A stretch of 53,115 nucleotides of DNA, from positions 1 to 53,115 of the forward strand of contig CACANC010000005.1 in NCBI GenBank assembly GCA_902533755.1, written 5' to 3'. Position 1 is the first letter of the stretch. The number at the start of each line of letters is the position of its first letter. Position numbers and translations under genes: made by a program. The notes under the pieces were generated by a model. That model ran no database searches. It was given only the letters and a program-made list of their open reading frames with translations, and was not told the origin of the DNA. The stretch is from an uncultured PS1 clade bacterium. Lineage in GTDB: Bacteria; Pseudomonadota; Alphaproteobacteria; MED-G09. Shown here piece by piece: positions 3,695 to 53,115 of this stretch.

Positions 3695-4378
3695 ATGAAA
3701 AGTAAATTAAAATATATAAATACCTTAGAACAAAAAATTAATTATAATTTTAATAATAAAGATTTGTTAGAAGAAGCATTAACCCATTCAAGCTTCAAAA
3801 ATAAATCTAATTCAAATCAAGAAAGACTTGAATTCTTAGGTGACAGAGTTTTAGGTCTTGTTATTGCGGAATTCCTGTTTAAAAGTTTTTTAAGTGAAAG
3901 AGAAGGTGTTTTGACTAATAAGTTTCGTTACTTAATCCAAAATAAACAATGCACAAAGATTGCAGAAAAATTAGATATTACTAATTATCTTCAGGTTGGT
4001 AATTCTGAAAAAAACAAAATAACTAATTCAATTTTAGCAGACTCCATAGAGGCTCTTTTAGGAGCTATTTATTTGGATGGGGGATATGATGAGTCTAAAA
4101 AAGTAATCTTATCTTTATGGGATGAATATTTGGACAATGATGAAATGCTTAATGCAACTGTGAGTTCAAAAAATATCTTACAAGAGTATTTGCATGCTAA
4201 TAGTTTAACAGAAGCCACTTATTTAGTTATTTCTAAAGATGGAGAAGATCATAATCCTAACTTTCTAGTTGAGGTCTCTGTAGATAAGCTTGGAAAAACA
4301 GATGCTTTTGGAAAATCTATAAAAGAGGCAGAAATTAATGCTGCCAAAAAATTTATTGATGAGTTTGAAATTGGATAA
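3695..4378 (+). CDS. rnc: ribonuclease III
   Basis: NQERLEFLGDRVLGLVIAEFLF signature and a C-terminal dsRBD (KSIKEAEINAAKKFI). Confidence 0.95.
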   Translation: MKSKLKYINTLEQKINYNFNNKDLLEEALTHSSFKNKSNSNQERLEFLGDRVLGLVIAEFLFKSFLSEREGVLTNKFRYLIQNKQCTKIAEKLDITNYLQVGNSEKNKITNSILADSIEALLGAIYLDGGYDESKKVILSLWDEYLDNDEMLNATVSSKNILQEYLHANSLTEATYLVISKDGEDHNPNFLVEVSVDKLGKTDAFGKSIKEAEINAAKKFIDEFEIG

Positions 4379-5273
4379 AATAAGAAAATCAAATATTGTT
4401 GTTAGTATTATTGGTCCCAGTAATTCAGGAAAATCAACATTATTGAACAAAGTTTTAGGTGAAAAAGTTTCTATTGTAAGTCGAAAAGTTCAAACTACTA
4501 GAATGGGATTAAGAGGAATACTCAACAATAATGAAACTCAAATTATTTTTATTGATACCCCTGGTTTGTTTGAAGCTAAAACTATTTTTGAAAAAGCGAT
4601 GGTCGAAAATGCATTTGCTAATTTAAATGATGCCGATCTTATTTATTTTTTAATAGATGGATCAAGAAAGTTAAGTAATTTTGATAAAAAGGTTTTAAAA
4701 TATTTTAAAAACTTTAAAAAAGAAGCTTTTTTAATAATCAATAAAATTGATCTTATTGAAAAAAAACAATTACTTGAAATCACAAATATTATTAATTCAT
4801 ATTTTCCGTTTAAAAAAACATTCTATATTTCTGCAAAAAACAAAGAAGGTATAAATGACTTACTGTTAGAAACAAATCATGAAGCTAATTCTGAAGGATG
4901 GTTGTATCCAGAGGACCAATATACAAATCTCCAAAGCGCCATTCTATGTGAAGAAATAACTAGAGAGAAAATATTTAATCATGTGCATGAGGAGGTTCCT
5001 TATGGCTCAATAGTAAAAACTGATAGCTGGTCAGATAAGAAGAAAGTTTTAAAAATAGGTCAAACTATCTATGTAAAAAAAAATAATCACAAAGGAATTA
5101 TTCTTGGAAAAGAAGGTTCAAAAATAAAAGAAATAGGTACTGCCTCAAGAATTGATTTAGAAAAAATATTCAATAAAAAGATATTTTTAAGTTTAGATGT
5201 AAAAGTAGATAAAAATTGGGATAAAGATCCAAAATATTTCAATAAGCTAGGCCTTGAGGTGAAGAAAAGATAA
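4338..5273 (+). CDS. era: GTPase Era
   Basis: G1 GPSNSGKSTLLN, G3 DTPG, NKID, and a C-terminal KH domain (GKEGSKIKEIG). The start is uncertain; an alternative ATG lies at 4359. Confidence 0.92.
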   Translation: MLPKNLLMSLKLDKIRKSNIVVSIIGPSNSGKSTLLNKVLGEKVSIVSRKVQTTRMGLRGILNNNETQIIFIDTPGLFEAKTIFEKAMVENAFANLNDADLIYFLIDGSRKLSNFDKKVLKYFKNFKKEAFLIINKIDLIEKKQLLEITNIINSYFPFKKTFYISAKNKEGINDLLLETNHEANSEGWLYPEDQYTNLQSAILCEEITREKIFNHVHEEVPYGSIVKTDSWSDKKKVLKIGQTIYVKKNNHKGIILGKEGSKIKEIGTASRIDLEKIFNKKIFLSLDVKVDKNWDKDPKYFNKLGLEVKKR

Positions 5274-6022: not shown

Positions 6023-8227
6023 ATGAATTTAATAGATCAATATAAAGATATAGAAATAGTTGATGCCCTTGAAGAAAGGTACTTAGCATATGCATTAACA
6101 ACGATAATGGATAGAGCTCTTCCCGATGTAAAAGATGGCCTAAAACCAGTACACAGAAGACTTCTTTTTGCAATGAGACAACTAAATTTATCTCCTAATT
6201 CTTCATTTAAAAAATCCGCAAGAATAGTAGGGGAGGTAATGGGAAGATTTCATCCCCACGGTGATCAAGCAATTTATGATACATTGGTAAGATTAGCTCA
6301 AGATTTTTCTGTAAGATGGCCATTAATTAATGGGCAGGGGAATTTTGGGAATATTGATGGCGATAATGCTGCTGCAATGCGTTATACAGAATCAAAATTA
6401 ACTACAATTTCTGAGTTATTATTATCTGGAATTGATGAAGAATCTGTTGATTTTAGATTAACATACGATGAAGTTGATAAAGAGCCTATTGTTTTACCTG
6501 CAAATTTCCCTAATCTTCTTGCAAATGGATCATCAGGAATTGCTGTTGGTATGGCGACATCGATACCTCCGCACAATGTTGAAGAGATATGCAATGCATC
6601 ACTCCATCTTATAAAACATAGAAATATGCATTTTGATAAACTAATTGATTTTATTCCTGGGCCTGATTTTCCTACTGGAGGAGAAATTTTTGAATCTAAA
6701 GATTCAATCCTTAATATTTATAAAACAGGGAAAGGAAATATAAGGATAAGAGCTAAGTGGGAAATTGAAAAAGAAAAAAGAGGGGTATGGAAGATTGTTG
6801 TTAATGAAATACCATACCAAGTTAATAAGGGTAAATTAATTGAAAAAATAGCTCAACTTATTATAGATAAAAAAATACCCATACTTGACGATATTCGTGA
6901 TGAATCTGATGAAAGTATTAGATTAATTTTAGTTCCCAGAAATAGAGATGTAGATCCCGAGCAATTAATGGAAGCTTTATTTAGTCTATCAGATTTAGAA
7001 ACTAGGTTTTCAGTTAATTTAAATGCAATAAACAATAATATACCTAAGGTACACAATCTTCGTGATTTACTTCTTGCTTGGATTGATCACAGAAGGGATG
7101 TGCTTGTAAGAAGAAGTACATTTAAGTTAAATCAAATTAAAACCCGAATGGAAATATTAAGTGGCTATTTAATTGTTTATGTAAATCTTGATGAGGTTAT
7201 CAAAATTATTAGAGAAGAAGATGAGCCAAAAATTAAATTAAAAAAGAAATTTGATTTAAATGATAATCAAGCCAATTCAATTTTAAATATGCGTCTTAGG
7301 TCATTAAGGAAGTTAGAAGAACTAAAAATTAAAGAAGAATATGACTCATTAAAAATAGAGAAATCAATTTTAGGTAAACTAATTAAATCAGATGATATTC
7401 AATGGAAGGAGGTATCAAAAGAAATTAAAGAAATAAAAAAAGATTTTTCTAAAAAAACAGACTTAGGAAAAAGAAGAACAAAAATTAACTATAATGCAGA
7501 AATTTTAGATATTGATCTTAATTTTTCTGAACCTGCAGAACCTATTACTGTTGTCTTATCAAAAGAGGGTTGGATCAAGACACTAAAAGGCCTTGATAAT
7601 GATGTTGCAGAAATTAAATTTAAAGATGGAGATGACTTACTTTTTATTCATGAAACAATGAGTGATGAAAAGCTTTTAATTTTTTCTTCAAATGGAAAAT
7701 TTTATACAATTGATGCAAGTCAACTTCCTTCTGGAAGAGGTTATGGAGATCCGTTAAAGCTCTTAATTGATCTACAAGATGATGATAAAATTATTTCCTT
7801 ATATTCGTTTTCTCAAGCTGGAGAACTAGTTATAGCTTCAAAATTTGGATATGGTTTTATAGTATCTTTTGAGGATTTGATTTCAAATAGAAAAGCTGGA
7901 AAACAAATATTAAACTTATCAAGCGATGATGAGGCTATTAGTTCAGATTATTTAAAAGGAACCAATATTGCGGTTATTGGCGAAAATAAAAAAATGTTAT
8001 TATTTAATCAAGAAGAACTCCCTAGGATGTCAAAAGGCAAAGGAGTTAGACTTCAGAAATATAAAGAAGGAAATCTTAAATCGATTATAAGTTTTAATTA
8101 TAGCGAAGGATTAAACATTGTTGATAATAATGGAAGAAATAGAAATTTTGATGATATTGAAAATTGGCTAGGAAAAAGAGGCCAAGCAGGCAAAAAAGCT
8201 CCTAAGGGCTTTCCTAGAAACTTCTAA
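6023..8227 (+). CDS. parC: DNA topoisomerase IV subunit A
   Basis: 734 aa with [31 protein letters not shown] and AAMRYTE. It is shorter than the gyrA paralog at 38594. Confidence 0.92.
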   Translation: MNLIDQYKDIEIVDALEERYLAYALTTIMDRALPDVKDGLKPVHRRLLFAMRQLNLSPNSSFKKSARIVGEVMGRFHPHGDQAIYDTLVRLAQDFSVRWPLINGQGNFGNIDGDNAAAMRYTESKLTTISELLLSGIDEESVDFRLTYDEVDKEPIVLPANFPNLLANGSSGIAVGMATSIPPHNVEEICNASLHLIKHRNMHFDKLIDFIPGPDFPTGGEIFESKDSILNIYKTGKGNIRIRAKWEIEKEKRGVWKIVVNEIPYQVNKGKLIEKIAQLIIDKKIPILDDIRDESDESIRLILVPRNRDVDPEQLMEALFSLSDLETRFSVNLNAINNNIPKVHNLRDLLLAWIDHRRDVLVRRSTFKLNQIKTRMEILSGYLIVYVNLDEVIKIIREEDEPKIKLKKKFDLNDNQANSILNMRLRSLRKLEELKIKEEYDSLKIEKSILGKLIKSDDIQWKEVSKEIKEIKKDFSKKTDLGKRRTKINYNAEILDIDLNFSEPAEPITVVLSKEGWIKTLKGLDNDVAEIKFKDGDDLLFIHETMSDEKLLIFSSNGKFYTIDASQLPSGRGYGDPLKLLIDLQDDDKIISLYSFSQAGELVIASKFGYGFIVSFEDLISNRKAGKQILNLSSDDEAISSDYLKGTNIAVIGENKKMLLFNQEELPRMSKGKGVRLQKYKEGNLKSIISFNYSEGLNIVDNNGRNRNFDDIENWLGKRGQAGKKAPKGFPRNF

Positions 8228-9777
8228 TTAAATATATAACTTGGTAACCATGTTGCTACCCCTGGGAATACTGATAACAAAATTAGCACCATCATTTGTA
8301 TAAGAATAAACGGGATTACTCCTTTATATATATCTGAAGTTTTTACTGAGTCTGGTGCAACTCCTCTTAAATAAAAGAGAGCAAATCCAAATGGAGGCGT
8401 TAAGAAGCTTGTCTGAAGATTAATAGCCATCATAACACCCAGCCAAACCGGGTCTATACCCATTTGAAGAATGATTGGAGCTACTATAGGTACCACAACA
8501 AAAGTTATCTCAATAAAATCTAAGAAGAAACCAAGTAAGAACATTGATATCATAACTATAAGTATTGCACTAAAAGTTCCTCCAGGAAGACTTGTAAGAA
8601 AATGCTCTATAGTTTCATCTCCACCCAAACCCCTAAAAACAAGACTAAAGAATGTTGCTCCAATTAATATAATAAAGACCATAGAAGTAATTTTGGTAGA
8701 TGATCTTGCTGCATCAATTAAAACACCACTTAAATACAACTTATATATACTTAAAAGTGTAGAGATTATGAAGATAACAAAAATTATTACTGCTAAAAAT
8801 ATATTAAAAGTTTCATAAAGATTTAAATCGACTCTATTAAGCCTTAAATCAAATAAAAAATTAAGAACCAAAAGGGCGATAAATGAAAATGTTGATACTA
8901 ATGTCCAAAAATTTTCTTTAGCTATTCTATTTGCGGCCAATAAAATTGAACCAATTGCTCCAACTGAAGCTGCCTCAGTAGGCGTTGCAAAACCTGTTAA
9001 TATTGATCCTAGAACAGCAATGATTAATGCCAGAGGAGGAAATAAGGTTTTGAATAGCTCTTTATAACTTATTTCATTTTCTTCAATGAGAATTTCAGGG
9101 GTAGAATTAGGATCAAATAATGCTTTCAAAAATTGATAAAAAATATAAAGAGAAACGAGTAACAATCCTGGAAAAAGTGACCCTGCAAATAAATCACCTA
9201 CAGAAACTGTATCTGGTGAAAAAATTCCCATTTGTAATTGTGATTGCTGATAAGCATTTGAAATAACATCACCAAGAAGAATTAATACAATTGAGGGTGG
9301 AATTATTTGTCCTAATGTTCCTGCTGCAGTTATTACTCCAGTAGCTAATTTTGGGTTATAGCCATTTTTTAACATTGTAGGTAATGATAAAAGCCCCATT
9401 GTTACTACTGTTGCACCCACAATTCCAGTTGAAGCAGCTAATAATGCTCCTACAAGGGTAACTGATATACCAAGCCCACCCTTTACATGTCTTAATAATT
9501 TACTCATATTTTCAAGTAAATCTTCAGCCACCTTCGATTTTTCTAAAATTGTTCCCATGAAAATAAATAAAGGAACTGCCATTAAGACTTCATTTGTCAT
9601 TGTTCCAAAAATTCTTTGTGGAATAGCTTTTAAGAATTGTATTGGAAAAACACCAAAATAGTCCCCAACTAAAGCAAAAATAATTGCAATACCTGCTAAA
9701 GAGAATGCTACTGGAAAACCTAAAAGAAGGACCAAGATTGCTACAGCAAACATCAATAAATCTAAATATTCTATCAT
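8224..9777 (-). CDS. dctM: TRAP transporter large permease subunit (DctM family), unusually long at 517 aa
   Basis: Polytopic membrane protein in an operon with DctQ- and DctP-like genes (4-nt and 1-nt overlaps). Confidence 0.88.
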   Translation of the reverse strand: MIEYLDLLMFAVAILVLLLGFPVAFSLAGIAIIFALVGDYFGVFPIQFLKAIPQRIFGTMTNEVLMAVPLFIFMGTILEKSKVAEDLLENMSKLLRHVKGGLGISVTLVGALLAASTGIVGATVVTMGLLSLPTMLKNGYNPKLATGVITAAGTLGQIIPPSIVLILLGDVISNAYQQSQLQMGIFSPDTVSVGDLFAGSLFPGLLLVSLYIFYQFLKALFDPNSTPEILIEENEISYKELFKTLFPPLALIIAVLGSILTGFATPTEAASVGAIGSILLAANRIAKENFWTLVSTFSFIALLVLNFLFDLRLNRVDLNLYETFNIFLAVIIFVIFIISTLLSIYKLYLSGVLIDAARSSTKITSMVFIILIGATFFSLVFRGLGGDETIEHFLTSLPGGTFSAILIVMISMFLLGFFLDFIEITFVVVPIVAPIILQMGIDPVWLGVMMAINLQTSFLTPPFGFALFYLRGVAPDSVKTSDIYKGVIPFILIQMMVLILLSVFPGVATWLPSYIFN

Positions 9778-42372: not shown

Positions 42373-43419
42373 ATGTTTCTTAAAGATTTTTCCTTTGAAC
42401 TACCTGAGGATTTAATAGCAGTTAAGCCAGTCTTTCCAAGAGACTCATCTAAATTACTTGTTTTAAAATCTCTTAACTCTTATCAAAATTGTCTATTTTC
42501 TGATATCTGCGATTATTTATTACCCGGAGATTTATTGGTGGTTAATAATACTAAAGTTAATGCTTCTAAAATTATAGGTATAAAAAAAGACACAAAATCA
42601 AAAATAGAATTTACTTTCATTTCCAACGAAAAAAATGGTGTTTGGTTATGCTTTGCCTTACCAGGAAAAAAAGTTTCTATAGGTAATTTATTTGTTTTTA
42701 GAGATGTTGAGGGAAAAGTCATTAATAAAGACAAAGAAAAGATATATATAGATTTTGGAACTAAAAATAATGAATTTACAGCCATTCTTACATCTTTTGG
42801 TGAAATTACACTTCCTCCATATATATCAAAGTTAAGAAAGTTTGAAGATCAAGATAATGAAGATTATCAAACCATATATGCACAAAAAAGAGGTTCAATA
42901 GCTGCTCCAACAGCAGGACTTCATTTTACAGATAATCTTCTAAAAAAAATTAAAAGAAAAAAAATTGATATTGAGAGTATTACTTTGAATATTGGTCCAG
43001 GCACATTTTTGCCTTTAAGGAATGACAAGGTTGAGGATAATAATTTACATTCAGAAAAATTTTATATTTCTGAGGAATCATCAGGTATTCTTAATGATGC
43101 ATATCATAATAAAGAGAGGAGGATTATATCTGTTGGAACAACTTCTCTAAGAGCTCTAGAGTCTTCCTTTGACAGTAAAAATTTTTTTAAACCTTTAGAT
43201 ACATCTACTAATATATTTATTTATCCTGGTAAAAAAATTAAATCAATTGATGGCTTGATAACAAACTTTCATTTACCTCAATCATCACTTTTTTTGTTAA
43301 TATGCGCCTTAATAGGTAAGAAAACAGCATTAGATATGTATAATTATGCTATAGAAAACAAATATAGATTCTACTCTTATGGAGATGCATGTTTTTTATT
43401 AAATAAAAATTATGGATAA
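42373..43419 (+). CDS. queA: S-adenosylmethionine:tRNA ribosyltransferase-isomerase
   Basis: FDFELPEDLIA-type N-terminus (FSFELPEDLIAVKP), GSIAAPTAGLHFT, VGTTSLRALES. Confidence 0.94.
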   Translation: MFLKDFSFELPEDLIAVKPVFPRDSSKLLVLKSLNSYQNCLFSDICDYLLPGDLLVVNNTKVNASKIIGIKKDTKSKIEFTFISNEKNGVWLCFALPGKKVSIGNLFVFRDVEGKVINKDKEKIYIDFGTKNNEFTAILTSFGEITLPPYISKLRKFEDQDNEDYQTIYAQKRGSIAAPTAGLHFTDNLLKKIKRKKIDIESITLNIGPGTFLPLRNDKVEDNNLHSEKFYISEESSGILNDAYHNKERRIISVGTTSLRALESSFDSKNFFKPLDTSTNIFIYPGKKIKSIDGLITNFHLPQSSLFLLICALIGKKTALDMYNYAIENKYRFYSYGDACFLLNKNYG

Positions 43420-44518
43420 ATTTAAGTTTAAAGTATTAAAAAAAGATGGCTATGCCCGCAAAGGTCTTATTGAAACCAAAAGAGGCAATATTAAAACACC
43501 TGCATTTATGCCTATAGCTACTCAAGGGGCAGTTAAGTTTACTCCGATAGAGTTTATAGAACAGATTGGATATGAATTAACGCTCTCAAATACCTATCAC
43601 TTATTATTAAGACCTGGATTAGAAAAGCTTTCTAGTATTGATGGTATTTCAGAGTTTATGGGATGGAATAAGCCCGTGTTAACAGACTCTGGAGGCTTTC
43701 AGGTGATGTCTCTATCAAAATTAAGAAAAATATCTGAAGAGGGAGTAAAATTCCAATCTCATATTGATGGAACATCACATTTTTTGACTCCTGAAAATGT
43801 AATTGATTATCAGAATATAATTAAGTCTGATATTCAAATGGTTTTAGATGAATGCATTCAATACCCCGAAACTTACGAAAATGTTAAAAAGTCAATGGAG
43901 CTGTCACTCAGATGGGCTGAGAGATCCAGAAAATATTATAATGAAAATAAAATTTATGGAGCTCAATTTGGAATAATTCAAGGAGGTGTATTTGAAGATT
44001 TAAGAGAGATATCAATTTCTGAAACAGTTAATTTTGATTTTGAGGGATATGCTATCGGCGGACTAGCTGTTGGTGAAGGTCATAAAAAAATGATTGAGGT
44101 TGTTGATTATACTGCTCCTCAATTACCTGAAGATAAGGTGAGATATCTGATGGGGGTTGGAAAACCTAATGATATTATTGAGGCAGTTTATAGAGGTATT
44201 GATATTTTTGATTGTGTTATCCCAACCAGAGAAGGAAGACATGGTATCGCTTATATTGGTTCTAGCTCTATTAATATAAAGAATTCTAAATTTGAGAATG
44301 ATTTAACTCCGTTAGATAAAGGCAGTGATTACTTTGTTTCAAAAAAATATTCAAAAAGTTATTTAAATCATTTGTTAAAAATTAAAGACCCTTTAGGACC
44401 AATGTTAATTTCTCTTCATAATCTTAATTATTACTTCAATTTGATGACTGATCTAGGAATATCCATTGAAGAAGGTAGATTAGATAGTTTTCGAGAAGAT
44501 TTTTATAAGGATAATTAA
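43412..44518 (+). CDS. tgt: tRNA-guanine transglycosylase
   Basis: TPAFMPIATQGAVK...LTDSGGFQV...GGLAVGE. Confidence 0.95.
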   Translation: MDKFKFKVLKKDGYARKGLIETKRGNIKTPAFMPIATQGAVKFTPIEFIEQIGYELTLSNTYHLLLRPGLEKLSSIDGISEFMGWNKPVLTDSGGFQVMSLSKLRKISEEGVKFQSHIDGTSHFLTPENVIDYQNIIKSDIQMVLDECIQYPETYENVKKSMELSLRWAERSRKYYNENKIYGAQFGIIQGGVFEDLREISISETVNFDFEGYAIGGLAVGEGHKKMIEVVDYTAPQLPEDKVRYLMGVGKPNDIIEAVYRGIDIFDCVIPTREGRHGIAYIGSSSINIKNSKFENDLTPLDKGSDYFVSKKYSKSYLNHLLKIKDPLGPMLISLHNLNYYFNLMTDLGISIEEGRLDSFREDFYKDN

Positions 44519-44694
44519 TCTTGTGAGGACTCTTTGCTGTCTTCTTTATCAATTTTAGCGGCTTTTACGCATTCTTCTCTTTCAACTCCCGCAGCTGTGC
44601 AAATTAATTCACCTGCAACAGGAATTTCCTCTTTTACTGACGAACAAGAAGTTAACAGTAAAAAAACAAATAAAGAAAAAAAATAGCTTTTCAT
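44515..44694 (-). CDS. small lipoprotein
   Basis: MKSYFFSLFVFLLLTSCSS lipobox. The track ORF extends to 44721; the ATG at 44694 gives a canonical signal peptide. Confidence 0.6.
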   Translation of the reverse strand: MKSYFFSLFVFLLLTSCSSVKEEIPVAGELICTAAGVEREECVKAAKIDKEDSKESSQD

Positions 44695-44804
44695 AAATGC
44701 CCTCTTTTTTGAAATTAGCATATTTAAATGAAATTCAAAATATCTTAATTTTAATCGATTTTATTTGATTTGACCTTAGCAAACATTTAAAAGGTATCTT
44801 GTGT

Positions 44805-44880
44805 GGGCCCGTAGCTCAGTAGGTAGAGCACCTCCCTTTTAAGGAGATTGTCACAGGTTCGATCCCTGTCGGGCTCACCA
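44805..44880 (+). tRNA. tRNA-Lys (anticodon UUU), CCA encoded
   Basis: Manual cloverleaf. Acceptor GGGCCCG/CGGGCTC, D arm GCTC-AGTAGGTA-GAGC, anticodon arm CCTCC-CTTTTAA-GGAGA (one C-A mismatch at 27:43), variable loop TTGTC, T arm ACAGG-TTCGATC-CCTGT, discriminator A, then CCA. Confidence 0.93.
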
Positions 44881-44881
44881 T

Positions 44882-44911
44882 CCTTAAACCAAGGTCAGCC
44901 TTAGTTTTAAG
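44882..44911 (+). terminator. Hairpin immediately 3' of tRNA-Lys (possible tRNA terminator or processing element), conserved in all long module copies
   Basis: CCTTAAACCAAGG-TCAG-CCTTAGTTTTAAG followed by a T-rich stretch. In copy C (48872-48901) a C-to-T change converts the C-A mismatch into a T-A pair. Confidence 0.45.
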
Positions 44912-44948
44912 AAATTTTCCACTCAAATTATATTTCCTGAATTTATAA

Positions 44949-44970
44949 GTTTTCGCAAAGTTTTCGCAAA
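44949..44970 (+). promoter_or_regulatory. Tandem 11-bp direct repeat GTTTTCGCAAA x2 (candidate protein-binding site)
   Basis: Exact tandem duplication with 11-bp periodicity. The same position in other module copies carries variant pairs. Confidence 0.5.
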
Positions 44971-45021
44971 AAAATTTGTGCTAGGTGAAAAAAGAGATAA
45001 GATTTACTCTGGAGCTAACAA

Positions 45022-45630
45022 ATGACAAAGATAGTATATGTTTTAACAAACCCCGCAATGCCTGGCTATGTAAAGATTGGAAAAACAGATAACCTAGTGG
45101 AAAGATTAAAGAGTCTTGATAGAACATCCACTCCTTTGCCTTTTCAGTGTGAATATGCAGCCGAGGTTAATGATGCAGACAAAGTTGAGAAGATTCTTCA
45201 TGATATTTTTGCTGATAAACGCGTAAGAACGAATAGAGAGTTTTTTGAAGTAGACCCTCACCAGATAATTCGTGCCTTCGATCTGCAGGATCATAAAGAT
45301 GTTACGCCAAAAGATGATATCTTTGAAACTGAAGAAGATAAAAAAGCAGTTTTTAAAAAGACTGAATTAAGATCGAGGTTCAATTTTGAAATGGTTAAAA
45401 TTAAACCCGGAATAGAATTATATTTTGCAAAAGATGAAAATATTAAATGTATAGTTAAAGATAAATTTCAGATAGAATTTGAGGGTGAAATACAATCTTT
45501 ATCTCAATCAGCTAAGATAATAATGGATAGACTTGGTTATAATTGGAAACAAATACAGGGTCCCGGCTATTGGATGTATGATAATGAAACTCTTCACGAA
45601 AGAAGAATAAGAATGGAAACCAATGAATAA
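45022..45630 (+). CDS. T5orf172 / GIY-YIG-superfamily (MUG113-like) domain protein with a small C-terminal domain of unknown function (DUF4357-like pattern)
   Basis: N-terminus IVYVLTNPAMPGYVKIGKTDNLVERLKSL...EKILHDIFADKRVRTNREFFEV fits the T5orf172 pattern. C-terminal part: IEFEGEIQSLSQSAKIIMDRLGYNWKQIQGPGYWMY. Confidence 0.75.
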   Translation: MTKIVYVLTNPAMPGYVKIGKTDNLVERLKSLDRTSTPLPFQCEYAAEVNDADKVEKILHDIFADKRVRTNREFFEVDPHQIIRAFDLQDHKDVTPKDDIFETEEDKKAVFKKTELRSRFNFEMVKIKPGIELYFAKDENIKCIVKDKFQIEFEGEIQSLSQSAKIIMDRLGYNWKQIQGPGYWMYDNETLHERRIRMETNE

Positions 45631-45632
45631 AT

Positions 45633-46967
45633 ATGTTTGAGGACTGGCTTAAAAAAGAAAAGAACTTAACAAACACATCTATATCTAAATATTTAAGTGC
45701 TATAGAAAAAATTAATTCTGATTTATTGAGTAAAGAAATTATAAAATCCTCTATTGAAGATTTAAATGAATATGAATTAAGAAAAATAAAGAATAATTAT
45801 TTTAATATCCCTGAAATAGAAGAATTAGATAGCAAAGGTCATAGAATGTATTCTGTGGCATTCAATCATTATATTTCTTACAAAGTCTCTTATAAAACTA
45901 AAATTAAAAATGAAAGCCTAGGTTATGTTTTAAAAGAAATTATTACTAAATATCCCGACGCAATTAAAGAACCAATTCACAATCATAGTTTAGCTGCATT
46001 TATCAGAACAACTGCAGTAGAAATTATCAAAAGTAATCTACCTGAAAAATTTAAATCATTTAAAGTAAAGGGATCAGCTGGAGAAGGGCGATGGATTGGT
46101 ACAGGGAAATCAGAAAGAAATCCATGGATTGCTGTATTAAATAAGAATATCACTAGTGGTGCATCTAAAGGGTACTACACAACTTATTCGTTCATTCATA
46201 AAAGTGATTTTATAATATTAAGTGTTGCTCAATCTGATCAAGAGATGGAATCTAAATATTCTAATAATAAAATTCCTAAGGTTTTGAATAATTATGCAGA
46301 TCTTATGAGGTTACAGCTAAATTCAAAAAAATATTCAAAATTCGACTCAGGTATCCCAGAGGTACTGGATAAAAATGGAGATAAGTTATTTTTAAATCGT
46401 ATTGGTGCGGTTTATCATAAAAAGTATAATATAAATGAACTTCCAAGCGATAAAGAGTTAAAGGAAGACCTTTCTTTAATGTTAGAAGCTTATTGGGATA
46501 TTTATAAAAATGGTGGACGACCAGGTTTAGAAAATGAAATAATTCAAAATAACGAATTCGATCCTAACAATATTGATTCTGAAAAAGAAAAAGTTCTTAG
46601 AAGTGTCACCTATAGAAGAGGTCAAAAAAAATTTCGTGATAACCTTCTTAGAGCATATGATTCAGAATGTGTGATGTCTGGATGTAGGGAAGAAGAGGTA
46701 TTACAAGCAGCGCATATTCTTCCATATACTGATGCTGAAACAAATAAGATAGATAACGGGTTACTTTTAAGAGCTGATCTTCATAACTTATTTGATTTAG
46801 ATTTAATATCAATTAATCCTAAAGATTTTACTATTTTAGTTTCAAGAGAGATTAAGGATTCAGATTATATAAAATTACATGGAAAAGAAATAAAGATGCC
46901 CAAGAGTAAAATTAAAAGTCCTAGTAAAAAAGCTTTAAAAATACATTTTAAGAATTTTAAGGGGTAA
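45633..46967 (+). CDS. three-part protein with an N-terminal helical domain, a DUF3578 (McrB N-terminal-like DNA-binding) domain and a C-terminal HNH nuclease; putative Type IV (modification-dependent) restriction-like enzyme
   Basis: FKVKGSAGEGRWIGTGKSERNPWIAVLNKN...GYYTTYSF resembles the DUF3578 core. C-terminus: YRRGQKKFRDNLLRAYDSECVMSGCREEEVLQAAHILPY...NGLLLRADLHNLFDLDLISI, an HNH_2-type motif. It starts 2 nt after the upstream stop. Confidence 0.75.
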   Translation: MFEDWLKKEKNLTNTSISKYLSAIEKINSDLLSKEIIKSSIEDLNEYELRKIKNNYFNIPEIEELDSKGHRMYSVAFNHYISYKVSYKTKIKNESLGYVLKEIITKYPDAIKEPIHNHSLAAFIRTTAVEIIKSNLPEKFKSFKVKGSAGEGRWIGTGKSERNPWIAVLNKNITSGASKGYYTTYSFIHKSDFIILSVAQSDQEMESKYSNNKIPKVLNNYADLMRLQLNSKKYSKFDSGIPEVLDKNGDKLFLNRIGAVYHKKYNINELPSDKELKEDLSLMLEAYWDIYKNGGRPGLENEIIQNNEFDPNNIDSEKEKVLRSVTYRRGQKKFRDNLLRAYDSECVMSGCREEEVLQAAHILPYTDAETNKIDNGLLLRADLHNLFDLDLISINPKDFTILVSREIKDSDYIKLHGKEIKMPKSKIKSPSKKALKIHFKNFKG

Positions 46968-46968
46968 G

Positions 46969-47050
46969 TTCCTTATTAGGAAGAGTGTCACATTCTAACT
47001 TAATTTATCAAAAAATATGATGAATAGTTTTCGCAAAGTTTTCGCAAAAA
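46969..47050 (+). repeat. Degenerate, internally deleted boundary module (E1): tRNA core-like TTAGGAAGAGTGTCAC plus GTTTTCGCAAA x2
   Basis: 46976-46991 resembles the tRNA segment TTAAGGAGATTGTCAC. 47027-47048 is identical to the tandem motif of copy A. About 75% identical by eye to 50262-50331. Confidence 0.7.
47027..47048 (+). promoter_or_regulatory. Tandem 11-bp direct repeat GTTTTCGCAAA x2
   Basis: Exact tandem, identical to 44949-44970. Confidence 0.5.
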
Positions 47051-47177
47051 TAGTTTTACTACATCTTTTTTACTCTTTTCTACTCTTTCGTTTTTTTAAT
47101 ACTAAACATAGGGTTTACTTAGGTTTCAAGGTAAATAACTGTATTTATTAAACATATAAAATATACTACACCAATGG

Positions 47178-47417
47178 CTTTTAAGGAGATTGTCACAGGT
47201 TCGATCCCTGTCGGGCTCACCATCCTTAAACCAAGGTCAGCCTTAGTTTTAAGAGATTTTCCACTCAAATTATATTTATCTAATTTCTTGGTTTCCGCAA
47301 AGTTTCCGCAAAAAAATTTGTGCTAGGTGAAAAAAGTATTACTCTTTGGTTAGCAAGGAGGAACTTATGAAGAAAGTTTTATTAGGTTTAGTTATCGCCG
47401 TAATGATGACTGGTAGT
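47178..47417 (+). repeat. Boundary module copy B: orphan tRNA-Lys 3' half plus leader, RBS and the first 17 codons of a lipoprotein signal peptide
   Basis: 47178-47222 is identical to tRNA positions 32-76. Similarity to copy C continues through AAGGAGGAACTTATGAAGAAAGTTTTATTAGGTTT...ATGATGACTGG. Confidence 0.9.
47291..47312 (+). promoter_or_regulatory. Tandem 11-bp direct repeat GTTTCCGCAAA x2 (variant)
   Basis: Both units carry the same T-to-C change relative to copy A. Confidence 0.5.
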
Positions 47418-48825: not shown

Positions 48826-49064
48826 CTTTTAAGGAAATTGTCACAGGTTCGATCCCTGTCGGGCTCACCATCCTTAAACTAAGGCCAGCCTTAGTTTCAA
48901 GAGATTTTCCACTCAAAATATATTTATCTAATTCTTTGGTTTGCACAAGGTTTGCACAAAAAATTTGTGCTAGGTAAAAAAAGAGTTACTCTTTGGTTAA
49001 CAAGGAGGAACTTATGAAGAAAGTTTTATTAGGTTTGGTTATCGCCTCAATGATGACTGGAAGT
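48826..49064 (+). repeat. Boundary module copy C: orphan tRNA-Lys 3' half plus leader, here joined to a full-length lipoprotein gene (probably the ancestral tRNA flank)
   Basis: 48826-48870 matches tRNA positions 32-76 with 1 mismatch (GGAGA to GGAAA). The hairpin, tandem motif, TTTGTGCTAGGT box and RBS are all present. Confidence 0.9.
48939..48960 (+). promoter_or_regulatory. Tandem 11-bp direct repeat GTTTGCACAAG / GTTTGCACAAA (variant)
   Basis: Both units share the GCAC core change relative to copies A and B. Confidence 0.5.
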
Positions 49065-49457
49065 ATTTATGCATGCAAAACGCCTGAAGAGTTAATGGAT
49101 AATTATTTTAATGACTTTAGTTCTGGCGATATAAAAAAAGTTGAGAGAAATTATTCATTTCCATTAATCGTTATTCAAAACGGTAATAAAACCATTCACG
49201 ATGAAATTTCAACTTTTTTAAATTTTAAAGAAATTAAAAAAACTGGATGGAAAGAGTCAGTTATTAATTCAGTAATGATTATTTTAAAAAAAGATAAATC
49301 AGCTGTTACACAAGTGAATTTTTCAAGAGTTAATAACAAGGGTGATATATATTTAACAACAGATGCAAATTATATTCTTATAAAAGAAGATGAAGATTGG
49401 TACATCTCAGGAGTAATTATTGATAGCGATGTTCCACTTGGTATAGAAAATTATTAA
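49014..49457 (+). CDS. exported or lipoprotein-type NTF2-like (SnoaL/DUF4440-like) protein
   Basis: MKKVLLGLVIASMMTGSIYAC signal or lipobox-like sequence. AAGGAGGA lies 6 nt upstream of the ATG. Paralog of the 51208 gene (shared ending DEDWYISGVI versus DEEWLISGVF). Confidence 0.7.
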   Translation: MKKVLLGLVIASMMTGSIYACKTPEELMDNYFNDFSSGDIKKVERNYSFPLIVIQNGNKTIHDEISTFLNFKEIKKTGWKESVINSVMIILKKDKSAVTQVNFSRVNNKGDIYLTTDANYILIKEDEDWYISGVIIDSDVPLGIENY

Positions 49458-50261: not shown

Positions 50262-50331
50262 TTCCTTATTAAGGAGAGTGTCAAACCTTAAATTAATTTA
50301 TAGATAAACATGATGACTATTTTTAACAAAG
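50262..50331 (+). repeat. Degenerate, internally deleted boundary module (E2): core-like TTAAGGAGAGTGTCA
   Basis: 50269-50283 matches the tRNA segment TTAAGGAGATTGTCA at 14/15 positions. The overall stretch is about 75% identical by eye to 46969-47038. Confidence 0.65.
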
Positions 50332-50443
50332 AGAATTTAGTTGTTACTATTGAATTTTTTAAAGAAAACACCAAATATAGTATATCATTCAAGTAGTAAG
50401 ATAATTCTTACAAAATGCCCTAATTTTCGTAATAGGAGTATTT

Positions 50444-51052
50444 ATGAAAAGAATTTGTTTAATATTTGGTCACCACAATACAAAAGACTCTTTTAATGCT
50501 GCTATAAGAGATGCTTTCATTGATGAGGCTGAAAAAATTGGTCATAAAATTGATCTAATAAATTTGTTCGATGAAGAAGAACAATTACCTTTTTACAGAA
50601 CAGATATTAATCCTCCTCCGCAAAAAGTACTAGATTATAGAGAAAGACTTGAAAAATCTGATGTTATGTTTTTGATGAGTGCATGTCATAATTTAAGAAT
50701 GAGTGGAATTACAGAAAATTGGATTGATTGGGTTTTACATCCAAAATGGTTCTTTTCATATAGATCGCTTTTACCCGATAGTAAATTTTTTGGGAACTAC
50801 GGTTATCCAGTTCCAGGCGCTATGAAAAATAAAATTGGAGTAGTTTCTATGACTTATGGAGGCCCAATGATAAGTTATTTTAACTTTTCCTTGTTTGATA
50901 ACATTCCATACAGAAGATTAAAAAAATCTGTTTTTTCTTTGGGCGGTTTAAAAATTAAATATTTAAGATTTTACTCTGTTCTTCCAATCATGACTAAAAA
51001 AATGTTTGATAAAAATATAAAAAAAGTAAGAAAATTTGCTCAAAGTTTATGA
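50444..51052 (+). CDS. flavodoxin-like fold NAD(P)H-dependent oxidoreductase (Flavodoxin_2 / quinone reductase-like)
   Basis: MKRICLIFGHHNTKDSFNAAIRDAFIDEAEKIGHKIDLINLF...ERLEKSDVMFL resembles the N-terminus of MdaB/KefG/NQO-type proteins. Confidence 0.7.
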   Translation: MKRICLIFGHHNTKDSFNAAIRDAFIDEAEKIGHKIDLINLFDEEEQLPFYRTDINPPPQKVLDYRERLEKSDVMFLMSACHNLRMSGITENWIDWVLHPKWFFSYRSLLPDSKFFGNYGYPVPGAMKNKIGVVSMTYGGPMISYFNFSLFDNIPYRRLKKSVFSLGGLKIKYLRFYSVLPIMTKKMFDKNIKKVRKFAQSL

Positions 51053-51055
51053 TAA

Positions 51056-51095
51056 GAGTAACTTATGAAGAAAGTTTTATTAGGTTTAGTCATTG
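51056..51095 (+). repeat. Leader-only fragment (D) of the boundary module: RBS-proximal sequence plus the first signal-peptide codons
   Basis: AACTTATGAAGAAAGTTTTATTAGGTTTAGT is identical to the copy B segment 47362-47392. Confidence 0.75.
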
Positions 51096-51181
51096 TAATA
51101 ATTATGGCAATATTATTCTTATTTTTTGGTAATTGGCTGGACGAACTAAAACATCTAATTAATGTCAATCATGTTCACTAA
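51065..51181 (+). CDS. 38-aa hydrophobic peptide whose first 9 codons derive from the repeated leader; may be a remnant rather than a gene
   Basis: MKKVLLGLVIVIIMAILFLFFGNWLDELKHLINVNHVH*, from manual translation. Confidence 0.3.
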   Translation: MKKVLLGLVIVIIMAILFLFFGNWLDELKHLINVNHVH

Positions 51182-51207
51182 TTTTACCTTTATTATTGGA
51201 GTATATA

Positions 51208-51675
51208 ATGAAAAAAATTTTATTAAGTTTAGTCATGACTTTAATAATGACGGCTAATGGATACGCAGATGAAATTGAAATTAAAAAAATAAAAGATAAA
51301 CATGATACTTATTATAAATACCTTTTTGAAAATGATATGAATAGTTTGGCTAAATTATTCTCTTTCCCCGCCGTTTTTAAGGGGTTCGTAAATGAAGTCC
51401 AAATTGCAAAAAATAAAAAAGAAATAAAAAATATCTACGAAAACCTTATTAAAGCAGCCCCTCAATCAAAATTTGCTAACAAAGGTATAAATTATACCGA
51501 AATAAACACAAAAGTTGAAAATAAATCAATTTTTAAAATGCGTGAAGATACATATATGCTTATAGTAAAGTATACTCAGAGTGATAAAAAAGATAATTCA
51601 TTAATTTTTTCTGGAAGAGCATCATATTTATTTATAAAAGATGATGAAGAGTGGTTAATATCAGGTGTATTTTAG
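51208..51675 (+). CDS. exported NTF2-like protein, paralog of 49014..49457
   Basis: MKKILLSLVMTLIMTANGYA signal peptide. Same length class and C-terminal DEEWLISGVF. GGAG lies upstream of the ATG at 51208. Confidence 0.7.
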   Translation: MKKILLSLVMTLIMTANGYADEIEIKKIKDKHDTYYKYLFENDMNSLAKLFSFPAVFKGFVNEVQIAKNKKEIKNIYENLIKAAPQSKFANKGINYTEINTKVENKSIFKMREDTYMLIVKYTQSDKKDNSLIFSGRASYLFIKDDEEWLISGVF

Positions 51676-52780: not shown

Positions 52781-53115
52781 ATGGAAAATTTTATGAGTGA
52801 ATTATCAGATATAGCTGAATCTATTCGTAATTATAAATTAAATGCAGACGGTGGATATGAAGAATGGGCAAAAGTTCCATGTTCTGAAGATTATAGAATG
52901 TATGTTCCTTCAATGGGTTTTGATGTTACTGGAGCTGATGAAGTAAAGGAAGTGATCTTCGGTTGGTTAACTGATATAGAAGCTGTACAAGAACTAGTAA
53001 ATATTATTGAATTTGAAAATACCGTTACAACATTTCTGCACATATCAAATAAAGACGACGAAATATTAAATATTGTTGAAGTCTTTAAAATTGATGATGA
53101 TGGAAAAGTTTTTGA
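52781..53115 (+). CDS. hypothetical protein, 3'-truncated by the window end (possibly another NTF2-like paralog)
   Basis: Open frame with no stop from ATG 52781 (alternative ATG at 52793) to the window end. It ends ...VEVFKIDDDGKVF, a typical SnoaL-like C-terminal pattern. Confidence 0.5.
   Translation, partial: MENFMSELSDIAESIRNYKLNADGGYEEWAKVPCSEDYRMYVPSMGFDVTGADEVKEVIFGWLTDIEAVQELVNIIEFENTVTTFLHISNKDDEILNIVEVFKIDDDGKVF

Follow-up and report, generated by a model that had tools for sequence, protein, structure and literature searches.

Introduction

In Escherichia coli McrB, modified DNA is read by the domain DUF3578, since renamed ADAM, which is the methylcytosine reader of EcoKMcrB (PMC3874153, PMC7641849, PMC11090510); the base bound is a flipped-out methyl- or hydroxymethyl-cytosine. 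According to a preprint, the readers by which modification-dependent enzymes recruit dimeric HNH domains include 'ADAM/DUF3578'. Here we describe a cassette from an uncultured PS1 clade bacterium in which a gene combining such a reader with an HNH_2 nuclease domain (gene 2) follows a gene for a protein of the GIY-YIG superfamily (gene 1). The cassette lies in a stretch of 53,115 nucleotides of contig CACANC010000005.1 (assembly GCA_902533755.1), which is called the window below.

Proteins resembling the product of gene 1 have also been described. The T5orf172 protein Odn of ICP1 is a proven nuclease (PMC8263062), and Iyer, Zhang and Aravind list a T5orf172/GIY-YIG-RAMA fusion among restriction-associated RAMA architectures (PMC4738411). 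Helbrecht et al. present the GIY-YIG-RAMA fusion as an uncharacterized candidate adenine-methylation-dependent enzyme, and the DNA-binding domain of MPND is a RAMA domain (PMC11037411). CMoRE (PD-T4-3) is a proven single-protein Type IV enzyme in which a GIY-YIG nuclease is joined to a C-terminal sensor of 5-hydroxymethylcytosine (PMC12923530). As for the genomic setting, the islands of SAR11 contain partial tRNA repeats and no integrase (PMC11796062).

An initial annotation of the window, made from its letters, proposed that the two genes form a new defense module of two obligatorily paired proteins. We lean slightly towards another reading, that the cassette encodes two self-sufficient, co-transcribed restriction-type nucleases and not an obligate two-component system. 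Both proteins are of kinds already recognized in databases or in the literature, and uncharacterized there; their combination and the population structure of reader swapping set this case apart.

Gene 2, a Reader-HNH Protein

Gene 2 (45633-46967, forward strand) is an open reading frame (ORF) of 444 amino acids with an ATG start, and its product consists of a helical N-terminal domain, a McrB-N reader and an HNH_2 nuclease. The reader (McrB-N/DUF3578/ADAM; amino acids 103-290, 45939-46502) is matched by Pfam MrcB_N, the equivalent of DUF3578, at 8.8e-29 (100.9 bits against a cut-off of 25), and by Foldseek it resembles the DNA-binding domain of E. coli McrB on modified-cytosine DNA (8ijo, 6gcd, 3ssc; E 8e-4 to 1e-2, probability ~1.0). 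The nuclease with its flanking helices occupies amino acids ~311-444 (46563-46964), and its Pfam HNH_2 core lies at amino acids 346-395 (46668-46817; 3.3e-12, 46.5 bits against a cut-off of 21). H361, N375 and H384 are the predicted catalytic residues; among 40 homologs H361 is invariant, and N375, H384 and D388 are kept in at least 90%. The DUF3578 and HNH_2 domains named in the initial annotation are confirmed by these Pfam matches, and the strings AAHILPY, NGLLL and LHNLFD that it quoted are all present in the translation. A further profile, NCBIfam PT-DNA_restrict (NF045808, ScoMcrA-like), aligns with the HNH part alone at 1.3e-12 (47.5 bits, under its cut-off of 180). The AlphaFold2 (AF2) model has a predicted local distance difference test (pLDDT) score of 77, exceeding 90 in the HNH region, and its best PDB matches by Foldseek are VcaM4I (5e-5), complexes of EcoK McrB-N with DNA (from 8e-4) and TagI.

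The surroundings of the cassette were scanned against Pfam over nine ORFs downstream (47.4-52.7 kb) and a small ORF at 44518-44721. No DNA methyltransferase, integrase or other defense gene was found in these ten ORFs, in keeping with the earlier remark that no methyltransferase is adjacent, and neither gene 2 nor any of them contains an AAA_5 or McrC domain; the Pfam matches of gene 1 are T5orf172 and MUG113 alone. Gene 2 thus combines a modified-DNA reader domain and an intact HNH motif with the lack of a methyltransferase in the scanned ORFs, its upstream neighbors being queA and tgt. Judged by domain content, it is most aptly classed as a reader-HNH enzyme of Type IV-like character that carries an additional N-domain, and the modification-dependent (Type IV) logic first suggested for it appears sound. 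In the literature searched, no characterized MrcB_N-HNH enzyme of this architecture was found.

The N-domain (amino acids 1-95, 45633-45917), which had been annotated as an unassigned helical domain, is a SAM-like helical module. A HMMER scan of 1.84 billion representatives (E<=1e-3) found it in 101 representative clusters, many of which are ~90-amino-acid stand-alone proteins. In the 54 multidomain carriers it is accompanied by HNH_2 (18), HNH (9), AAA_5 of the McrB type (5) or T5orf172 (3), and by MrcB_N, Mrr_cat_2 or EVE in single members; five members match Phage_int_SAM_5 and three match Phage_int_SAM_1. The N-domain had been seen with gene 1 and found absent where gene 1 was absent, which, together with fusions of the two described below, first favored its being a dedicated adaptor for gene 1. 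That reading was rejected, because fusions of the domain involve a wide range of nucleases, HNH_2 most often, and because the protein P0242 has the domain with no gene 1 upstream. It appears instead to be a general DNA-binding accessory shared by restriction nucleases.

Exchange of the Reader Domain

The most interesting concrete result of this analysis is the mosaic structure of gene 2. A Tara contig, L001, carries the identical pairing of gene 1 and gene 2, and its DNA is 95-100% identical to the window from gene 1 through the end of the N-domain (44978-45877). Identity then falls to 38-73% across the reader (~45878-46527) and is regained, at 83-97%, in the HNH domain (46528-46947). The segment 45878-46527 (forward strand), which spans the reader, accordingly has the layout of an allele-swapped, recombinant segment in this comparison. 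The pattern extends to other alleles: the readers of six of them share 35-60% protein identity and their HNH domains 77-100%, and two alleles have a different nuclease altogether. Such a mosaic is as expected of a specificity module exchanged by recombination.

Gene 1, a Member of the PDC-S57 Family

Gene 1 (45022-45630, forward strand) is an ORF of 202 amino acids with an ATG start and a GGAG Shine-Dalgarno sequence 11 nt upstream. Amino acids 4-86 (45031-45279) form a T5orf172/MUG113 nuclease domain of the GIY-YIG superfamily, as initially annotated, with Pfam matches to T5orf172 at 4.3e-18 (66.1 bits, cut-off 20) and to MUG113 at 7.8e-18 (65.3 bits, cut-off 22.3). The nuclease motif residues are Y6, K18-I19-G20, R28 and E73; across 116 homologs E73 and G20 are invariant, and Y6 and R28 are kept in at least 90%. 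The AF2 model (pLDDT 85.8) resembles the GIY-YIG nuclease Slx1 by Foldseek (probability 0.97-0.99, E ~0.13). The whole protein is a full-length member of PDC-S57 (PDLC05041; 6.8e-72, amino acids 2-200 aligned with positions 5-208 of the 212 in the profile), an existing PADLOC single-gene defense candidate. The PADLOC search proposed in the initial annotation therefore placed gene 1 in a candidate family, and it did so as a single gene and not as part of a pair. At E<=1, PDC-S57 and PD-Lambda-1 were the only PADLOC models matched; NCBIfam gave no match to gene 1. The family is large and is conserved over both halves of the protein.

The C-terminal domain (amino acids ~118-202, 45373-45627) has the conserved residues F120, F122, D138, G172, G180, W184 and R195 and includes the GY.W...GP.YW string pointed out earlier. 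DUF4357, the assignment first put forward for it, had to be abandoned: PF14267 matched neither gene 1 and 20 relatives (E<=1) nor the isolated domain (E<=10). The fold is probably RAMA-like instead. Foldseek matched the model to CcrM (chain 6pbd_B; E 2.9e-3, probability 1.00) over 95 columns only and to a complex of MPND with DNA (7ydw_B; probability 0.85, template modeling score on the target 0.59). Judging by the shortness of the alignment, the CcrM match presumably involves the C-terminal DNA-binding domain of that enzyme, which we take to be a RAMA domain. A relative of gene 1, P0234, matches Pfam RAMA at 7.3e-6 (26.3 bits, under the curated cut-off of 35.2); gene 1 itself has no match to that profile (PF18755) at E<=1 for the whole protein or at E<=10 for the isolated domain. 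Gene 1 thus joins a GIY-YIG/T5orf172 nuclease domain to a probable RAMA domain, and the domain assignments support the initial view of both proteins as candidate restriction-type nucleases.

Homology of gene 1 to CMoRE/PD-T4-3 was considered and rejected, there being no PD-T4-3 profile match (PADLOC, E<=1), no shared motif and no PDB sequence match. The structures of CMoRE (PDB 9U7U and related) are not among the best 50 of the 111 Foldseek matches of gene 1. Sequence searches of the PDB gave nothing useful for either gene 1 or gene 2.

Distribution of Gene 1 and Its Neighbors

Relatives of gene 1 were collected with one genome per species and were found in at least 561 species-level genome stretches, from Proteobacteria, Patescibacteria, Chloroflexota, archaea and others; the neighborhoods of the best 80 of these loci were inspected. 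The neighbors on the same strand within 100 nt are heterogeneous and rich in restriction-modification (R-M) genes, the recurrent families being N6_Mtase/HsdM_N, EcoRI_methylase, ResIII, HSDR_N, Tsp45I and Eco57I. No McrB-N or HNH_2 gene was found near gene 1 relatives at any of the 80 loci. Away from this lineage, the gene 1 family therefore travels with R-M systems, mostly those with adenine methylases.

These neighbors bear on the idea that gene 1, as a conventional methylation-sensitive restriction nuclease or toxin, once had a methyltransferase partner, has lost it and is now silenced, or else is restrained by gene 2 or by a methylase that the host encodes elsewhere. Relatives often lie directly beside N6-adenine methyltransferases (HsdM, EcoRI methylase, Eco57I-type), and in the account of Iyer et al. 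RAMA-nuclease fusions supply the restriction component of R-M systems that methylate adenine (PMC4738411). On the other hand, the scanned ORFs of the array hold no methyltransferase, and gene 1 is intact, keeps its catalytic residues and has a 99% identical copy in a second contig, which argues for an active and tolerated protein. We hold such an orphan origin to be quite improbable.

Full-length members of the gene 1 family also occur on roughly two dozen viral contigs, and phage T5orf172 genes have been described as putative homing endonucleases at recombination boundaries (PMC10448857, PMC8263062). Gene 1 could accordingly be a selfish or mobility nuclease, either homing-endonuclease-like or a mover of cassettes, that hitchhikes beside gene 2 and leaves defense to the latter. 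Its position on the left border of the block shared with L001 at 95-100% identity would fit this, as would the lack of an integrase in the scanned ORFs. Against this, the family is found full-length and with a fixed two-domain architecture in diverse cellular genomes, preferentially beside R-M genes, which is unlike homing into conserved targets; the other cassettes of the array have no such gene, and PADLOC lists the family as a defense candidate. Taken together, these points make a selfish gene 1 a poor prospect, no better than the loss of a methyltransferase. A phage origin of the pair as a whole was also considered and rejected, because the gene 2 architecture was not found on viral contigs, where its HNH_2 parts match alone, and the gene 1 relatives there are distant only.

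Pairing of the Two Genes

The preferred reading, two self-sufficient nucleases, draws further on the occurrence of the gene 2 core alone. The full gene 2 architecture is rare, and a word-indexed search with the reader domain alone returned one relative only. Three of the five gene 2 clusters (P0001, P0003, P0004) start at 'MIRNA...', lack the N-domain and form stand-alone cassettes. The McrB-N-HNH_2 core stands alone, with no gene 1, at four loci (L002, L099, L100, L101). In L002 a stand-alone gene of 349-365 amino acids with its own AAGGAGG Shine-Dalgarno sequence comes directly after a variant of the leader module that precedes the window cassette. In L101, at the syntenic queA-tgt site, the stand-alone gene makes up the first cassette behind tRNA-Lys and is followed by the same right-hand boundary module as in the window; L100 has it behind the 3' end of another tRNA. 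L099 carries the reader allele of the window (93%) with neither N-domain nor gene 1. Conversely, P0242 joins the N-domain and McrB-N to a different nuclease, PD-(D/E)XK-like by motif and with a faint XisH match only, and has no gene 1 upstream. At 11 of 12 further N-domain-HNH loci there is no gene 1 relative within 5 kb, the exception being the contig L193.

The two families are therefore not general neighbors elsewhere, an outcome that the initial annotation itself had named as contradicting its proposal. They do not recur side by side across unrelated genomes, and the pair was seen in a few related marine contigs only. Obligatory pairing is contradicted on three counts: none of the 80 gene 1 loci has a McrB-N or HNH_2 partner, the core stands alone at the four loci above, and gene 1 belongs to a family already listed as a single-gene candidate. 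Gene 2 comes close to the stand-alone Type IV enzyme that was likewise named as an adverse outcome, in that it is Type IV-like and occurs alone. The annotation of a two-gene unit with no spare DNA between its flanking modules was confirmed, with ORFs at 45022-45630 and 45633-46967. The 2-nt gap between them was also confirmed as spacing; as special evidence of translational coupling it was rejected, since it equals the norm of the window, where same-strand gaps have a median of 3 nt and 26 of the 43 do not exceed 10 nt.

A number of observations weigh against the reading of two independent nucleases, and most of them favor a genuine two-component restriction system, in which each protein would cut one strand or one would license the other, with gene 1 as a portable co-nuclease for various reader-nucleases. 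The pair is kept in L001 despite the replaced reader. In ~15 contigs the gene for a 225-amino-acid HNH protein overlaps by one base the start of 86%-identical gene 1 homologs. A cassette at the 3' end of another tRNA (L190, 254-2435; also L191) pairs an 82% gene 1 homolog with a convergent gene for a McrB-N-PD-(D/E)XK-like protein. N-domains are fused to the N-terminus of PDC-S57 proteins (L053, 5683-6603; L055; P0267), and in L193 1.1 kb separates a distant gene 1 relative from an N-domain-HNH_2 gene. Gene 2, whose start codon comes 2 nt behind the stop codon of gene 1, lacks its own Shine-Dalgarno sequence and may therefore rely on gene 1 for translation. In the marine lineage gene 1 is beside a nuclease gene more often than independence predicts, and the gene 1 family is embedded in R-M operons across phyla. 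The marine pairings are few, closely related and of one island family; they make a partnership more probable without establishing it.

The evidence from distribution runs the other way: no HNH_2 or McrB-N neighbor at the best gene 1 loci, no gene 1 relative near nearly all further N-domain-HNH loci, a reader-HNH core that occurs alone at the same chromosomal slot, and an N-domain without gene 1 in P0242. Homodimers, moreover, are the working form of the known reader-HNH enzymes. Because the marine examples are few, phylogenetically close and of one island family, their co-location may reflect a shared insertion hotspot. A two-component system is therefore, in our estimate, unlikely. Rather less likely again is its most elaborate form, in which PDC-S57 GIY-YIG-RAMA proteins would be portable co-nucleases that physically team with McrB-N-HNH, HNH, McrB-N-PD-(D/E)XK and R-M enzymes, and would here form a heteromeric modification-dependent enzyme whose specificity is reset by reader swapping.

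Three further points count against two independent nucleases on the side of function. The RAMA assignment of gene 1 consists of fold similarity and the single sub-threshold Pfam match in its relative; for MPND, the reading of methyl-adenine by RAMA lacks confirmation (PMC11037411); and the literature searched yielded no biochemical characterization of either protein family and no mention or experimental characterization of PDC-S57.

Some of the loci named above have additional features. The 225-amino-acid HNH protein (L003, 4809-5486; the same gene in L004-L018) has a classical C-terminal HNH domain and an N-terminal part of ~150 amino acids, for which an SRA-like identity, guessed from the sequence, was rejected because it has no support from Pfam, PADLOC or PDB sequences. 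One of these contigs, L005, carries cargo cassettes 81-87% identical to 49004-49457, 50442-51017 and 52783-53115 of the window. In L013 (6817-12609) and L014, which belong to a metagenome-assembled genome labeled Hyphomicrobiales, the pair of a 225-amino-acid-type HNH gene and gene 1 adjoins a complete Type I R-M system (HsdR, HsdS, HsdM) and a phage-type integrase, and this locus is a small defense island. The convergent gene of L190 encodes 365 amino acids; besides a McrB-N reader, these include a PD-(D/E)XK-like nuclease domain that has a faint XisH match and shares 46% identity with the C-terminus of P0242. The same cassette contains two small ORFs of 57 and 95 amino acids. The N-domain-T5orf172 fusions (L053, L055, P0267, P0241, P0243) are 303-306 amino acids long with a RAMA-like part and 210 without it. 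In L193, a low-coverage long-read contig, two genes of the gene 1 family flank the N-domain-HNH_2 gene (2204-2887, 4001-4705, 7536-8240); one of the two is apparently frameshifted, and the other bears a doubtful precomputed 'Ferritin' label.

Proposed Mode of Action and Significance

From the gene structures, the domains, the conserved catalytic residues, the boundaries, the independent occurrence and the reader swapping, all of them observed, we infer nuclease activity, modification dependence, targets, dimerization and a defense phenotype as follows. Both genes would be expressed from the leader in front of gene 1. The McrB-N/ADAM domain of gene 2 would bind a modified base and so position the HNH_2 nuclease, which probably acts as a homodimer in the manner of TagI and VcaM4I, for a cut close by, with the SAM-like N-domain making extra DNA contacts. 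Strain-to-strain recombination would exchange the reader of gene 2 and so alter recognition. Gene 1 would most likely be a further, independently acting nuclease whose preference for DNA or its modification differs; its target is a guess, because methyl-adenine reading by RAMA is unconfirmed for MPND. Together the two genes would constitute a miniature defense island in a streamlined marine genome.

The present evidence defines no new two-gene defense system. Should the reading of two independent nucleases hold, the tRNA-linked flexible islands of a streamlined low-GC marine bacterium, with an apparently SAR11-like genome, contain compact restriction cassettes of Type IV-like character, and a reader exchanged between strains beside a constant nuclease would be a testable example of population-level diversification of phage defense in very small genomes. 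The cassette also offers a defined context for testing the uncharacterized PDC-S57/GIY-YIG-RAMA family.

The tRNA-Lys-linked Cassette Array

The window has ~30% G+C and is ~90% coding. Upstream of the cassette are queA (42373-43419) and, 3' of it, tgt (43412-44518), followed by a tRNA-Lys with anticodon TTT (44805-44880, forward strand; ARAGORN), which heads the cassette array. A direct repeat of 159 nt, here called module A, consists of the last 45 nt of tRNA-Lys and ~115 nt downstream of it. Its first copy (44836-44994, forward strand; direct-repeat families D1 and D4) comprises the 3' part of the tRNA-Lys itself and the ~115-nt leader in front of gene 1. The second copy (47178-47336, forward strand; a D1 copy, 94% identity), a partial tRNA-Lys 3' repeat with module A, is where the next cassette starts, and a third is found at 48826-48984 (80%). 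The same module A lies 5' of the cassette in L001, and a variant lies 5' of the stand-alone gene in L002 and L101. In L001 the cassette is preceded by a partial tRNA repeat and not by a full tRNA.

The right-hand boundary of the cassette is module E1 (46969-47038, forward strand; repeat family D6), which starts 1 nt after the stop codon of gene 2 and has a second copy at 50262-50331. It opens with a perfect hairpin, TTCC-TTATTA-GGAA, followed by GAGTGTCACA, and its sequence is also found 3' of the alternative cassette in L101 (91% identity). By eye, the start of module E1 resembles the anticodon arm and variable region of tRNA-Lys (CTCC-CTTTTAA-GGAG-ATTGTCACA). Module E1 may be a decayed tRNA or a remnant of an attachment site that marks the ends of cassettes.

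The cassettes are bounded by partial tRNA 3' repeats, as seen in the D1 family, and tRNA 3' repeats between cassettes are a signature of serial cassette insertion at a tRNA. The tRNA-Lys(TTT) locus is an integration hotspot, and the initial placement of the unit on a mobile, tRNA-linked cassette agrees with the tRNA-Lys 3' repeats.

Copy 1 of module A contains the 11-mer GTTTTCGCAAA duplicated in tandem and then AAAAATTTGTGCTAGGTGAAAAAAG. More generally, module A copies have a short motif twice in tandem and then an A-run (AAAAATTTGTGCTAGGTG in the window copies). In the window the tandem motif is located at 44948-44983, 47026-47061, 47290-47325 and 48937-48972; further sites are in L002 (1-30), L100 (~100-125) and L190 (~100-125 and 2500-2530). 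The motif varies by copy (GTTTTCGCAAA x2, GTTTCCGCAAA x2, GGTTTGCACAA x2, GTGCCAAA x2, ATTTATCACAA x2, GTTGTACCAAA x2). Because the two halves change in concert, they may be a paired site at which a regulator or recombinase binds. The promoter-like hexamers at 44907-44934 were not above chance, and the same was true of a promoter and terminator scan.

The ten ORFs scanned against Pfam include a TauE-type permease, NTF2-like lipoproteins, rhodanese-AdhesinE, flavodoxin-like, SnoaL-like and cold-shock proteins; three of the ten have no Pfam match. The regions 47348-47408, 48995-49055, 51046-51106 and 51189-51249 have in common a conserved leader, a ribosome-binding site and the first residues of a lipoprotein-type signal peptide (MKKVLLGLVIA...), and the ORF at 47368, which has this leader, appears truncated. 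The downstream cassettes seem to have a common 5' expression module.

Comparison with Known Systems

The array has its closest counterpart in the tRNA-linked islands of SAR11 and other streamlined marine bacteria (PMC11796062). Like these, it starts at a tRNA, has partial tRNA 3' repeats between its cassettes and shows no integrase or other canonical mobile element in the ORFs scanned. The window cassette differs in its cargo, as restriction or defense genes are unmentioned in the description of those islands.

Gene 1 can be compared with two kinds of protein. To CMoRE it is similar in having an N-terminal nuclease of the GIY-YIG superfamily and a small C-terminal DNA- or modification-binding domain within ~200-250 amino acids, but it has L8 where the GIYxY motif needs tyrosine, and the fold of its C-terminal domain, probably RAMA-like, differs. 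The likeness to PDC-S57 and the GIY-YIG-RAMA fusions (Iyer et al., 2016; Helbrecht et al., 2024) is closer, with an end-to-end profile match, a T5orf172 domain followed by a probably RAMA-like one, and relatives that have R-M neighbors. Unlike those relatives, gene 1 has no R-M partner; what comes after it, on a tRNA-linked cassette, is a Type IV-like reader-HNH gene.

Gene 2 shares the DUF3578/ADAM reader, by Pfam and by fold, with McrBC of E. coli K-12. In contrast to McrBC, it comes with no AAA+ GTPase and no McrC, and cutting would be carried out by the fused HNH domain and not by a translocation-dependent McrC. Its HNH region is related to the phosphorothioate/ScoMcrA-type family. The overall plan is that of the reader-HNH Type IV enzymes TagI (SRA-HNH), VcaM4I (EVE-HNH) and ScoMcrA (SBD-SRA-HNH), with one polypeptide, a reader followed by a C-terminal HNH domain, and no methyltransferase. 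Gene 2 differs from them in that its reader is McrB-N and not SRA or EVE, in that a SAM-like N-domain of ~95 amino acids is added, and in that the reader is hypervariable between otherwise near-identical alleles. The cassette thereby provides natural reader-swap variants of the uncharacterized McrB-N-HNH class, which may serve as modification-specific nucleases.

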